Part shown: piece by piece, positions 9,499-12,426 of the stretch
Numbering within the stretch: position 1 is the first letter of the stretch
How the letters are laid out: every line of letters starts with the position of its first letter
Origin: Clostridia bacterium
GTDB taxonomy: Bacteria > Bacillota > Clostridia > Monoglobales > Firm-18
Direction: 5' to 3'
NCBI GenBank assembly: GCA_045660545.1
Contig: JAZREA010000021.1
Location: forward strand, 86,503-150,502
Length of the DNA stretch: 64,000 nucleotides
The notes under the pieces: generated by a model
What the model was told of the DNA's origin: nothing
Database searches by the model: none
What the model saw: only the letters and a program-made list of their open reading frames with translations
Made by a program: the position numbers and the translations under genes

Positions 9499-9645
9499 AA
9501 ATCGACAAGATTCGATAAGAGTCTTGTCGATTTTACTTTTCACCTATTCACTCTTCACTATTCACTAAGATTGAACTTGTCGATTTGAAGTAATAAGTAA
9601 TATGTAACAGTGAAGAAGTGAGGTGCAAAATCGCAAGCGATTTTG
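9499..9645 (+). repeat. tRNA-trailer repeat, copy after tRNA-Pro
   Basis: Colinear along its length with the reverse complement of 56248-56396, which follows tRNA-Arg. Confidence 0.85.
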
Positions 9646-9738
9646 TTTTAGATTTATATTATATAGTTTAAAAATCAAATTAAGAAACCCTTGCTATTAC
9701 TACATTTACAAGTAAATCCTATAAGAACACTCGCACCA

Positions 9739-9772
9739 AAAAACAACTGATACTTTTGTATCGGTTGTTTTT
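9739..9772. terminator. Intrinsic terminator-like hairpin
   Basis: AAAAACAACTGATAC-tttt-GTATCGGTTGTTTTT followed by a T run. Confidence 0.7.
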
Positions 9773-9906
9773 TTATTTTTAAAAGGGATAACAGGATTTG
9801 AAGCTTAAGAAGGCACAAGACATTTAGGTACATATACAAATTGCTCCATAACTACGATATCATCACGGCATAATGGTTATACTACTAAAAGACTGGAGTG
9901 ATTATT

Positions 9907-11322
9907 ATGCAATTTGTTTATAAAAATCCTTATCTTAAAGGTTTTGTTCCCTATGCACTCGCGGCATTTTTAGTAGGTGTTGTAGGCGGATTTACCGCTG
10001 TTTTGGGACCTGCATTTGTCAGTGATTTAAACTTGCCGTATAACAACACGACGTGGACCGCCTTAGCTATGTCGGCCTCCACAGCAGCGTTCGCCCCAAT
10101 ACTCGGCAAGCTTGGTGACGCAATAGGAAGGCAGACAACGCTATTGATTGGTATCGCAATTTTCGCCCTCGGCAACATCCTTACGGCGATAGCGCCATCG
10201 CTATTTTTCATGATTATTGCCCGCTTTATTGTAGGAATCGGGACTGCAGCTATTGCGCCGGTTGTAATGTCATACATTGTAACAGAGTTTCCGCGTGAGA
10301 AAATAGCAAAGGGGTTTTCGTTATATATGCTTATTTCAAGCGGTGCGGTAATTTTTGGCCCTACAATCGGCGGCGTGCTTATTGAATTTTACGGCTGGAG
10401 AGTAATGATGTGGGTATGCGTTGCAATTTCCGCAATTATATTTTCCCTTTGCCTTGTGATGTACAAAAAAGAGGAACGAATCCTAAGGCCGCTTACGGAT
10501 TTTGACGGAATAGGCTCTGTGTGGGTTTTGATTTTCTTTACTCTTATGCTTTGTCTGCCGTCATTTGGTCAGAATTTTGGGGTTAGGTCGATGTGGTTTA
10601 TCGTTATTTTAATTGCATCGGTTATTTCCTTTGCCGGCCTGATTTATGCAGAAAAAAGAGCGGCAAATCCGATTCTCAGCTGGAAATTTATGAAAAGGAA
10701 AAAGTTTTTCCTCTCAGTTTTGGCTCTGTTTTTGACTCAGGGGCTTATGCAGGCGAATATGACAAATATGATTGTTTTTATCAACTACACCCAGCCTGAC
10801 AACACTATTATTTCCAGCTATGCAATTTCAATTATGTATATCGGAATGTCGATTGGTTCTGTTGTTTTAGGCCCATTGGCAGACCGCAAGGAGCCGAAAA
10901 AAGTCTTGGCCGTTTCGCTGACGCTTACGGGGATAGGGTGTGCGATAATGCTTTTGTTTGCTGCACAAACCTCGGTGATTATACTCGCTGCTTCACTTGG
11001 GATTTTAGGCTTTGGGCTTGGCGGAAACGCCGCAATATTTATGAAGGTGGTGCTTTTTGGTGTGCCTTCCGAAACTGCGGGGGCGGGAACGGGAACTTAC
11101 GGGCTGTTCCGTGACCTTGCTGCGCCCTTTGGGGTTGCAATTTTCGTACCTCTTTTTACAAACAGAGTAACAAGCCTGATAAATACAGGAGCAAATCAAG
11201 TAAACGCCGCGTTAGCTTCCGTAAAATTCCTTGCCATGGCGGAAATTCTTTGCGTAGTTTTAGGGATTGCCACAGTGCTGTTCCTGCCTCAAATTTATAC
11301 CCAAAAAGGAGAAAAAGTATGA
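9907..11322 (+). CDS. baiG: MFS transporter (about 14 TM), BaiG-like bile acid importer
   Basis: Strings GGFTAVLGPAFV, YNNTTW, APILGKLGD, ARFIVGIGTAAI, LYMLISSGAV, YTQPDN, GTGTYGLFRD match my recollection of Clostridium scindens BaiG. ATG at 9907 lies 8 nt after GGAG. Confidence 0.8.
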   Translation: MQFVYKNPYLKGFVPYALAAFLVGVVGGFTAVLGPAFVSDLNLPYNNTTWTALAMSASTAAFAPILGKLGDAIGRQTTLLIGIAIFALGNILTAIAPSLFFMIIARFIVGIGTAAIAPVVMSYIVTEFPREKIAKGFSLYMLISSGAVIFGPTIGGVLIEFYGWRVMMWVCVAISAIIFSLCLVMYKKEERILRPLTDFDGIGSVWVLIFFTLMLCLPSFGQNFGVRSMWFIVILIASVISFAGLIYAEKRAANPILSWKFMKRKKFFLSVLALFLTQGLMQANMTNMIVFINYTQPDNTIISSYAISIMYIGMSIGSVVLGPLADRKEPKKVLAVSLTLTGIGCAIMLLFAAQTSVIILAASLGILGFGLGGNAAIFMKVVLFGVPSETAGAGTGTYGLFRDLAAPFGVAIFVPLFTNRVTSLINTGANQVNAALASVKFLAMAEILCVVLGIATVLFLPQIYTQKGEKV

Positions 11323-12116
11323 GATTAAAAGATAAAGTTGCTTTAATTACTGCCTCAACACGAGGAATTGGACTTGCCATTACCAAAGCCTTTGCCAAAG
11401 AAGGTGCTTTGGTCTATATGGCGGCGAGAAATTTAGAGCTTGCAAAGCAGGAGGCTGACAAGCTGTGTTCGGAAGGCTTTGCAGTAAAATATGTTTATAA
11501 CGATGCAAGCAAGCCGGAGTCGTATAAAACCATGACAGACGAAGTTATAAAATATGCGGGACGTATTGACGTTCTGGTCAACAACTTCGGCACTTCAAAC
11601 CCGGGAAAAGACCTTGACTTTTCAAACACCGACCCGGACGTTTTCTTCGACATTGTAAATATTAATTTAAAAAGTGTATTTCTTGCGAGCAAGGAAGCCG
11701 CAAAGCATATGGCAAAAAACGGCGGCGGAAGTATTATAAACATATCGTCTGTGGGTGGTCTTGTTCCTGATATCTCGCAGATTGCATACGGAACCAGTAA
11801 GGCTGCTATTAATTACCTGACAAAGCTAATCGCCGTACACGAAGCGAAAAACAACATTCGGTGCAACGCAATCCTGCCCGGTATGACCGCAACCGACGCG
11901 GTAGAAAAAAATCTTTCACAGGATTTTAAGGAACTGTTTACACGCCACATTCCGTTTAAAAGGATGGGTACTCCCGAAGAAATTGCATCAGCCGCTGTGT
12001 ATTTTGCATCGGACGATTCTGCTTATACAACAGGGCAGATACTGACAGTCTCAGGCGGTTTCGGCCTGGCAACCCCGGTGTACACAGAGCTGTCGGAAAA
12101 ACTAAACCGCAGATAA
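11319..12116 (+). CDS. hdhA: SDR, NADP-dependent 7alpha-hydroxysteroid dehydrogenase-like
   Basis: MRLKDKV, TASTRGIG, VNNFG, catalytic YGTSK in PDISQIAYGTSKAAINYLTKLIAVHEA, YTTGQILTVSGGFGLATP match my recollection of C. scindens 7alpha-HSDH. ATGA overlap with the baiG-like stop; AAGGAG RBS. Confidence 0.82.
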   Translation: MRLKDKVALITASTRGIGLAITKAFAKEGALVYMAARNLELAKQEADKLCSEGFAVKYVYNDASKPESYKTMTDEVIKYAGRIDVLVNNFGTSNPGKDLDFSNTDPDVFFDIVNINLKSVFLASKEAAKHMAKNGGGSIINISSVGGLVPDISQIAYGTSKAAINYLTKLIAVHEAKNNIRCNAILPGMTATDAVEKNLSQDFKELFTRHIPFKRMGTPEEIASAAVYFASDDSAYTTGQILTVSGGFGLATPVYTELSEKLNRR

Positions 12117-12154
12117 AAAAACGCATATTTTAATCCGCGTAGATAAAAATTTAT

Positions 12155-12190
12155 AAAAAAAAGACTATTCTTACGAATAGTCTTTTTTTT
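12155..12190. terminator. Bidirectional terminator between the SDR gene and the tRNA cluster
   Basis: AAAAAAAAGACTATTC-ttac-GAATAGTCTTTTTTTT. Confidence 0.85.
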
Positions 12191-12265
12191 GGTGGAAGTT
12201 ATAGGGATCGAACCTATGACCCTCTGCTTGTAAGGCAGATGCTCTCCCAGCTGAGCTAAACTTCC
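12190..12265 (-). tRNA. tRNA-Val(TAC)
   Basis: GGAAGTT/AACTTCC acceptor stem, anticodon loop CT-TAC-AA, CCA. Confidence 0.96.
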
Positions 12266-12271
12266 AAAGTA

Positions 12272-12346
12272 TGGTGACCCGTAGGAGAATCGAACTCCTA
12301 TCTTCGCCGTGAAAGGGCGATGTCTTAACCGTTTGACCAACGGGCC
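12272..12346 (-). tRNA. tRNA-Glu(TTC)
   Basis: GGCCCGT/ACGGGTC acceptor stem, TCGCC-CT-TTC-AC-GGCGA, CCA. Confidence 0.96.
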
Positions 12347-12349
12347 ATC

Positions 12350-12426
12350 TGGTAGCGGCAAGTGGATTTGAACCACTGACCTAACGGGTATGAACCGTTT
12401 GCTCTAGCCAGCTGAGCTATGCCGCC
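12350..12426 (-). tRNA. tRNA-Met(CAT), elongator type
   Basis: GGCGGCA/TGCCGCT acceptor stem, AACGG-TT-CAT-AC-CCGTT. Resembles the Firmicute elongator Met rather than fMet or Ile2. Confidence 0.9.

Follow-up and report, generated by a model that had tools for sequence, protein, structure and literature searches.

Which function would a gene resembling baiG, the bile-acid importer gene of the bai operon, serve at a locus where no other bai gene is present? The question is raised by two adjoining genes at positions 9,907 to 12,116 of a 64,000-nt stretch of DNA from a Clostridia bacterium (assembly GCA_045660545.1, contig JAZREA010000021.1, positions 86,503 to 150,502 of the forward strand), referred to below as the window. 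The first gene encodes a transporter of the major facilitator superfamily (MFS) and the second a short-chain dehydrogenase/reductase (SDR); the initial annotation had read them as a BaiG-like importer coupled to a 7α-hydroxysteroid dehydrogenase (7α-HSDH). Our analysis indicates that the pair is probably a horizontally acquired, coupled bile-acid cassette, in which a BaiG-family transporter is joined to an NADP(H) 7α-HSDH acting at the 7-position. Its substrate and cofactor, the direction of transport, and its physiological role and expression are inferred from sequence comparison.

Firstly, we assigned the SDR. Pfam places it in adh_short and adh_short_C2, and it scores 415.9 bits on NF049979, the curated 7α-HSDH equivalog of NCBI (cut-off 350 bits), against 213.6 bits for the runner-up family; it is the sole protein of the whole genome to exceed the NF049979 cut-off. 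The top solved structure was 5EPO, the NADP-dependent 7α-HSDH of C. absonum (E 6.5e-81), which aligns without gaps over residues 2-258 and is about 60% identical. Identity rises to 72.8% over 265 aa with the single NF049979 match (266 aa) of G462, a genome of the GTDB family of Extibacter muris with the gene order baiB-CD-E-A-F-G-H-I. In that genome the 7α-HSDH gene stands alone, with neither a transporter gene nor ahpC adjoining, whereas the start of the window SDR overlaps the stop of the transporter gene; this agrees with the earlier statement that the two genes do not form a stand-alone pair in C. scindens. In the C. absonum enzyme, the residues around the 2'-phosphate of NADP are Thr15, Arg16, Arg38 and Arg194, Arg38 being singled out as the key determinant, and the active site consists of Thr145, Tyr158 and Lys162 (PMC4785404). 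The equivalents of the first three NADP-binding residues are T14, R15 and R37 in the window SDR, and they are kept in 64-65 of 65 homologues; S144, Y157 and K161 align with the catalytic triad, with Ser standing for Thr145. The triad, the Thr/Arg/Arg determinants and an extended C-terminal segment, GGFGLATP in the window protein, are shared with the C. absonum enzyme and with the NADP-dependent 7α-HSDH of C. scindens / Eubacterium VPI 12708, which was reportedly described by Baron et al. in 1991. We infer from the 73% and 60% identities and from the curated model that the SDR is an NADP(H)-dependent 7α-HSDH, as had been proposed.

Secondly, we assigned the transporter. It matches PF07690 (E 1e-43, residues 17-409), and a search of 1.84 billion representative proteins returned full-length relatives at 71%, 48% and 47% identity, then nothing above about 30%; the BaiG-like MFS group appears as a discrete family, set apart from other MFS proteins. 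NCBIfam holds no BaiG model, and both the BaiG of E. muris and the window MFS match TIGR00711 alone, below its cut-off (for the window MFS, 130.9 bits over residues 20-435, cut-off 230). Membership of the BaiG family was therefore tested by synteny and by a tree. In E. muris DSM 28560, the MFS gene is flanked by a CoA-transferase gene in the position of baiF and by a gene for a BaiCD-like flavoenzyme in the position of baiH, and the upstream region exceeds the NCBI cut-offs for BaiB (963 bits against 650) and for BaiCD (914 against 825). On account of these positions and model matches, the E. muris protein is a bona fide BaiG by synteny. The window MFS is 61.5% identical to it over all 475 residues, and 59.8% and 61.1% identical, in end-to-end alignments, to the BaiG proteins encoded in the bai operons of two further genomes (G182 and G462, respectively), operons that were likewise confirmed by BaiB and BaiCD matches over the cut-offs. 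It thus shares with operon BaiG a length of about 470-477 aa, a DHA2-like topology and 60-61.5% full-length identity, and it differs in gene context, lying outside a bai operon and coupled to an HSDH gene, whereas operon baiG is flanked by baiF and baiH. For comparison, the one 'BaiG-like' transporter in the literature that we searched is 22% identical (PMC8623032). The number of transmembrane segments (TMS) was not derived from hydropathy, a crude count of which showed 16 peaks that overlap. In PMC12065433, which refers to Mallonee and Hylemon 1996, the BaiG that C. scindens VPI 12708 encodes in its baiBCDEAFGHI operon is described as a bile-acid importer that depends on the proton motive force. 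By analogy with this one characterised member of the family, the window MFS may take up unconjugated bile acids.

In the E. muris DSM 28560 locus, baiB and baiCD form one 1168-aa open reading frame (ORF; L086:4579-8085), both domains of which exceed the NCBIfam cut-offs. The two are separate, adjoining genes in G182 and G462, and the E. muris ORF reflects either a genuine gene fusion or a frameshift introduced in assembly.

Thirdly, we examined how the two genes are joined and whether selection maintains them. The MFS gene starts at the ATG at 9907, with GGAG 8 nt 5' of it (the earliest possible start is a GTG at 9898), and stops at the TGA at 11320-11322. The ATG of the SDR gene, at 11319-11321, shares the ATGA with this stop and is preceded, 7 nt 5', by AGGAG at 11307-11311; the SDR is predicted to be translationally coupled to the MFS through this overlap. 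Both the ORF list and the raw sequence bear out the two-gene operon originally described, ARAGORN places the pair between tRNA-Pro and the Met-Glu-Val tRNAs as had been stated, and hairpins flank it on both sides where terminators had been noted, three upstream and one downstream (Table 1). Strong purifying selection acts on both genes: the ratio of nonsynonymous to synonymous substitution rates, dN/dS, stands at 0.10 in the MFS gene and at 0.05 in the SDR gene.

Table 1. Coordinates, within the window, of the cassette and of the elements that flank it.
Feature	Position	Strand	Basis or remark
tRNA-Pro(CGG)	9422-9498	+	ARAGORN; left edge of the genome-specific segment
Terminator-like hairpin, upstream	9512-9530		Hairpin scan
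Terminator-like hairpin, upstream	9625-9646		Hairpin scan
Terminator-like hairpin, 16-bp stem and T-run, between tRNA-Pro and the cassette	9738-9773	+	Hairpin scan, sequence read
Inverted 18-nt copy of the T-arm/acceptor end of tRNA-Pro, possible attachment-site remnant	9785-9802	-	Sequence match
Conserved 5' leader of the cassette	9870-9906	+	-10-like TATACT 9878-9883; ribosome-binding site (RBS) GGAG 9895-9898
Predicted BaiG-family MFS transporter gene, 471 aa, DHA2-like	9907-11322	+	ORF; PF07690; identity to operon BaiG
Predicted NADP(H)-type 7α-HSDH gene, 265 aa, classical SDR	11319-12116	+	ORF; NF049979; 5EPO
Symmetric 16-bp hairpin with A8/T8 flanks	12155-12190	.	Hairpin scan, sequence read
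tRNA-Val(TAC), tRNA-Glu(TTC), tRNA-Met(CAT)	12190-12426	-	ARAGORN; right edge of the genome-specific segment

The symmetric downstream hairpin likely terminates transcription from both directions, serving the cassette and the convergent tRNA cluster alike.

Fourthly, we searched the genome (an assembly of 1.55 Mb in 26 contigs, 96.55% complete) for other bile-acid genes. The window contains no bai genes, as had been said for baiB, baiCD, baiE, baiF and baiH, and a tblastn search with BaiB, CD, E, F, H and I of E. muris extends this absence to the whole assembly: it gave no real match, only generic acyl-CoA ligases at 24-26% identity. On the basis of this search of the 96.55%-complete assembly, we rejected a bai operon split over other contigs. 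BaiB was likewise not found in three other genomes that carry the pair, and the bile-salt-hydrolase family PF02275 was not found in the genome of the window. Besides the cassette enzyme, this genome encodes four SDRs, namely a YmfI/FabG-type reductase, a gluconate 5-dehydrogenase and two proteins without family assignment (on C8 and C24); no 7β-HSDH partner was recognised among them, although either of the two unassigned proteins could conceivably be one. The suggestion that the cassette performs the first half of an epimerisation of chenodeoxycholic to ursodeoxycholic acid (UDCA) therefore finds no support inside this genome. With the bai pathway and a bile salt hydrolase both absent, and a second HSDH not recognisable, the cassette would act alone on the 7-position, and the best-supported reading of the gene content is that the organism would be unable to deconjugate or to 7-dehydroxylate bile acids.

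During these searches we also observed an atypical or partial bai arrangement in two genomes of the E. muris family (G329 and G199; loci L096 and L097). Their BaiB exceeds the model cut-off, is about 50% identical to E. muris BaiB and adjoins an SDR and a BaiF-like CoA-transferase (43%), with no BaiCD, E, G or H nearby.

Fifthly, we assessed the origin of the cassette. Blastn homology between the window and its ten closest loci (L007-L016), at 81% identity, is confined to positions 9870/9890-12121, and an HprK or FtsH gene is present in none of these ten loci. Among themselves these loci, which represent at least ten GTDB species, share an island that is 89-97% identical, with flanks that cannot be aligned. 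Compared with the window, FtsH of the L007-L016 carriers is 57-66% identical, whereas their MFS is 84-86% and their SDR 88-90% identical; the FtsH values lie at or under the 63-69% identity that other families of the same order show to the window. No MFS cassette was found in 21 genomes of the same family, in which FtsH is 71-83% identical. Homology limited to the cassette, unrelated flanks, the gap in identity between FtsH and the two cassette proteins, and absence from the 21 same-family genomes together make the horizontal acquisition suspected in the initial annotation well supported, but as an old event. A genome of the same order (G060) carries a 79%-identical MFS fragment (C8:679-1281, L088) that covers residues 270-470, contains two TAA codons and has the appearance of a decaying copy.

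The boundaries of the segment were approached through G006, the nearest same-family relative, whose homology to the window breaks off precisely at 9498 and at 12186; positions 9499-12185 are on this ground specific to the genome of the window and lie at a synteny break. G006 keeps hprK-tRNA-Pro and ftsH-tRNA-Met-Glu-Val on different contigs. An empty site, with hprK-tRNA-Pro joined to tRNA-Val-Glu-Met-ftsH, was not found in any of the relatives, the two halves lying on separate contigs or far apart in 22 of 22. The cassette therefore lies at a synteny break, and a clean insertion is not demonstrable.

An association with tRNA-Pro recurs in the related loci. In L012, an intact tRNA-Pro(CGG) at 3161-3237 is followed, 5.9 kb away, by a 47-nt truncated direct copy (about 9147-9193) that spans the anticodon loop to the 3' end, and the island of about 6 kb between these repeats (3238-9193) comprises ahpF-ahpC-MFS-SDR-ferritin. 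The identical truncated copy follows the conserved end of the island in L008, L010, L011 and L015, where ARAGORN calls no tRNA, and tRNA-Pro(CGG) lies about 3 kb 5' of the MFS gene in L012, L013 and L014. In the window, 408 nt separate the cassette from tRNA-Pro(CGG). The reverse complement of 9785-9802 is TTCAAATCCTGTTATCCC, an 18-mer that agrees with the tRNA-Pro of the window in 17 of its 18 letters and with the truncated tRNA-Pro copies of L010, L011 and L015 in all 18. L012 additionally encodes, outside the tRNA-Pro repeats, a large serine recombinase (L012:707-2374; Resolvase, Recombinase and Zn-ribbon domains), the 3' end of which overlaps a tRNA-Ser(GCT) on the opposite strand and which may belong to a second integrated element.

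Sixthly, we determined how widely the pair is distributed and what surrounds it. When every GTDB species was represented by one genome, a scan gave 309 MFS relatives; E. muris DSM 28560 is among the best 80 of these 309, to which the locus counts that follow refer. An SDR gene, its product 63-90% identical to that of the window, lies directly 3' of the MFS gene in 67 of the 80 loci, so that the stand-alone pair, less singular than it first seemed, is the commonest context of its MFS clade. The overlap of the two genes is ATGA in 45 loci and 17 nt long in 12 others, and the MFS gene occurs without the SDR gene in 12 of the 80. A divergent ahpC with a permuted ahpF lies immediately 5' of the MFS gene in 56 of the 80; in many copies a desulfoferrodoxin gene stands between ahpC and the MFS gene, and a ferritin gene follows the SDR gene. 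The class to which the window belongs, with the SDR gene present and ahpC absent, is a minority (13/80), and an AhpC homologue was not found in the genome of the window. The carriers are metagenome-assembled genomes (MAGs) from chicken, ruminant and other animal guts, along with at least one isolate, Hominicoprocola fusiformis CLA-AA-H188 (L071). Most derive from hindgut or faecal samples, and some are rumen MAGs. A search of sequencing runs for the window sequence returned one DNA run, a goat gut metagenome (share 0.05), and no RNA runs. The names attached to the close MFS homologues, 'MFS transporter' and 'SDR family oxidoreductase', say little.

The 'AhpF' encoded beside ahpC has an unusual domain order. 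In the two copies inspected (L081:7632-9284 and L012:3727-5385) it consists of an N-terminal thioredoxin-reductase-like domain and one C-terminal thioredoxin domain, the reverse of classical AhpF. This arrangement presumably resembles a fused form of the Cp34/Cp9 peroxiredoxin-reducing system of C. pasteurianum.

Taken as a bile-acid cassette, the pair would work as follows. The transporter, a BaiG-family MFS protein of the 14-TMS type, would most likely use the proton gradient to carry unconjugated C24 bile acids across the membrane. The cytoplasmic SDR would then interconvert the 7α-hydroxyl and 7-oxo forms, that is, cholate with 7-oxo-deoxycholate and chenodeoxycholate with 7-oxo-lithocholate. 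The role could be to blunt bile-acid toxicity, or to exchange NADP+/NADPH reducing equivalents with the bile-acid pool. The cassette would form the central part of a small island passed around among gut Clostridia that are only distantly related, and in this genome only the pair would be left beside tRNA-Pro(CGG), with the inverted tRNA-Pro remnant upstream.

Several observations weigh against this reading. As regards the transporter, the window MFS falls under the cut-off of the DHA2 family (TIGR00711), and the curated families that it weakly resembles are efflux pumps; relatives of the DHA2 type being mostly exporters, uptake is extrapolated from a single characterised protein. In a maximum-likelihood tree (a quick search that included three operon BaiG sequences and used the 47-48% identical proteins as outgroup), the three operon BaiG proteins form one clade (SH-like approximate likelihood ratio test, SH-aLRT, 95) and the window MFS lies outside it, with the other members of a sister clade (SH-aLRT 96) that comprises 80 non-bai proteins. 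The earlier description of the MFS as BaiG-like accordingly stands, with the correction that orthology to operon BaiG falls: the window protein is best placed, with good support, in a BaiG-like sister subfamily. As regards the enzyme, the position of C. absonum Arg194 is Asp in the window SDR; it is Asp in the G462 enzyme too, and Asp or Glu in 65 of 65 homologues. As regards gene content, the assembly is not fully complete, so a missing contig with bai genes remains conceivable and their absence is not absolute. As regards transfer, an integrase or recombinase was found in none of the island copies examined, and site-specific integration is not demonstrated for this genome, because its tRNA-Pro repeat is only 18 nt long and inverted. 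Composition gives no signal of transfer either: the guanine-plus-cytosine (GC) content of the cassette is 0.444, against 0.426 for the genome, and cassette GC matches host GC in every genome checked. Since, in addition, the synonymous divergence (dS) from the nearest copies is 0.86-1.28, any transfer would be old.

Expression is a further point of this kind. A sigma-70-type promoter was not found on the + strand between the promoter of tRNA-Pro (9352-9379) and the MFS gene, the 408 nt ahead of the cassette included, and three hairpins separate the cassette from that tRNA promoter. An alignment of upstream regions revealed that the window keeps the RBS and the TGGTTATACTA...GATTGGAGTGAT leader with its -10-like TGGTTATACTA; this leader also precedes the MFS start in the distant copies L012, L013, L017 and L021. 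It lacks the AT-rich TAAATAAATAC element that is located about 20 nt further 5' in the other copies, where a regulator might bind that also serves the divergent ahpC. The missing promoter match, the hairpins and the lost element suggest that the cassette may be poorly expressed here.

Among the other explanations, the one that survives best concerns the direction of the enzyme. The transporter could import 7-oxo bile acids that the SDR reduces with NADPH, making the bile-acid pool an electron sink and yielding no 7-oxo products. In favour of this are the reversibility of the reaction, the strongly reducing conditions of the gut and the conserved NADP(H) determinants; furthermore, the 7α-HSDH of C. 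scindens, the closest characterised homologue, is described as reducing 7-oxo-deoxycholic acid with NADPH in vivo (PMC12065433). However, the sequence fixes no direction, and the peroxide and superoxide defence genes that neighbour the pair in relatives, whose products consume NAD(P)H, fit an NADPH-producing, oxidative role at least equally. We regard reductive operation as a possibility to be kept in mind, and not as the probable direction.

Alternatively, the MFS could be a drug:H+ antiporter of the DHA2 type that expels bile acids or the 7-oxo product, the pair forming a detoxify-and-pump resistance unit. The curated families that score best for the MFS, EmrB, QacA and Tet(L) among them, are efflux pumps, passive entry into cells is open to unconjugated bile acids, and relatives have the pair linked to genes of stress defence. 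Identity argues for the opposite direction, since the window MFS is 60-61.5% identical to BaiG and less than 30% identical to a representative of any efflux pump family. Moreover, BaiG, the only characterised member of the family, is reported in PMC12065433 as an importer dependent on the proton motive force, and we consider export unlikely.

A silent or decaying remnant is a third alternative, in which a larger island would have lost, in this genome, its promoter region and the neighbouring genes ahpCF, superoxide reductase and ferritin. The promoter region fits such a loss, with its lack of a sigma-70 match, its three intervening hairpins and a homology to other copies that begins only about 35 nt before the ATG. 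The tree points the same way, the terminal branch of the window MFS measuring 0.18 against at most 0.06 for its clade mates, and decay is exemplified by the two-stop fragment in G060. Set against this are two intact ORFs with good RBSs, dN/dS values of 0.05-0.10 and the conservation of TATACT together with the RBS, on the strength of which we find decay doubtful. Least probable of all is a substrate other than bile acids (another steroid, a hydroxylated lipid or a redox-cycling compound, with the resemblance reflecting mere family membership): the 56 of 80 loci with the MFS gene beside divergent ahpC-ahpF, often with desulfoferrodoxin and ferritin genes, the 12 loci without the SDR gene and the carriers among rumen MAGs, where bile acids are scarce, would suit it, yet the SDR is 73% identical to the 7α-HSDH of a bai genome and above the equivalog cut-off, the MFS is at least 60% identical to BaiG, specificity seldom shifts at such identities, and the carriers are mostly hindgut or faecal.

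Both protein families of the cassette are already known, and the pipeline of NCBI would name the SDR. The literature that we searched contains no description of a BaiG-family transporter paired with a 7α-HSDH outside bai operons, nor of the distribution or island context of such a pair. A 7α/7β-HSDH cluster of C. absonum, attributed to Ferrandi et al. 2012, is said to lie outside a bai operon and to include a transport-related gene; in the genome of the window, unlike that cluster, no 7β-HSDH partner is recognised. The same logic, a transporter co-transcribed with a cytoplasmic enzyme that modifies steroids or bile acids, is found in desABCD of C. scindens with its putative transporter DesD (PMC7996314) and, according to Elkins et al. 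2001 as cited in PMC7996314, in the conjugated-bile-salt transporter and bile salt hydrolase genes of Lactobacillus johnsonii. These two operons differ from the cassette in enzyme chemistry and transporter families, and for neither of them is a tRNA-associated island or a context of peroxide and superoxide defence reported in the texts consulted.

The finding bears on how bile-acid genes are recognised. Since the pair is shared among dozens of animal-gut species, 'baiG-like' matches do not alone indicate 7-dehydroxylation. BaiG-family genes at about 60% identity appear to be common in gut Clostridia that would be unable to 7-dehydroxylate; pipelines that count 'baiG' as a bai module would over-call partial bai carriers, and the clade merits a separate annotation. 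The cassette could serve as a simple genetic marker for the formation or consumption of 7-oxo bile acids by uncultured Clostridia of livestock and human guts. UDCA epimerisation has these 7-oxo compounds as its hub, and they influence the flux of 7-dehydroxylation. At least one cultured carrier, the H. fusiformis isolate named above, opens the cassette to experiment.

The repeated place of the pair among defence genes, on an island that is shared horizontally, suggests a link between bile-acid redox chemistry and oxygen tolerance. Because the pair is recurrently embedded in an island for peroxide, superoxide and iron defence, one may speculate, at long odds in our judgement, that it is part of a mobile, tRNA-targeting oxidative-stress island in which oxidation of imported primary bile acids at C7 regenerates NADPH for the detoxification of peroxide and superoxide. 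If this were true, host bile acids would serve strict anaerobes at the mucosa as an electron donor for oxygen defence, and the production of 7-oxo bile acids would be a by-product of oxidative stress.

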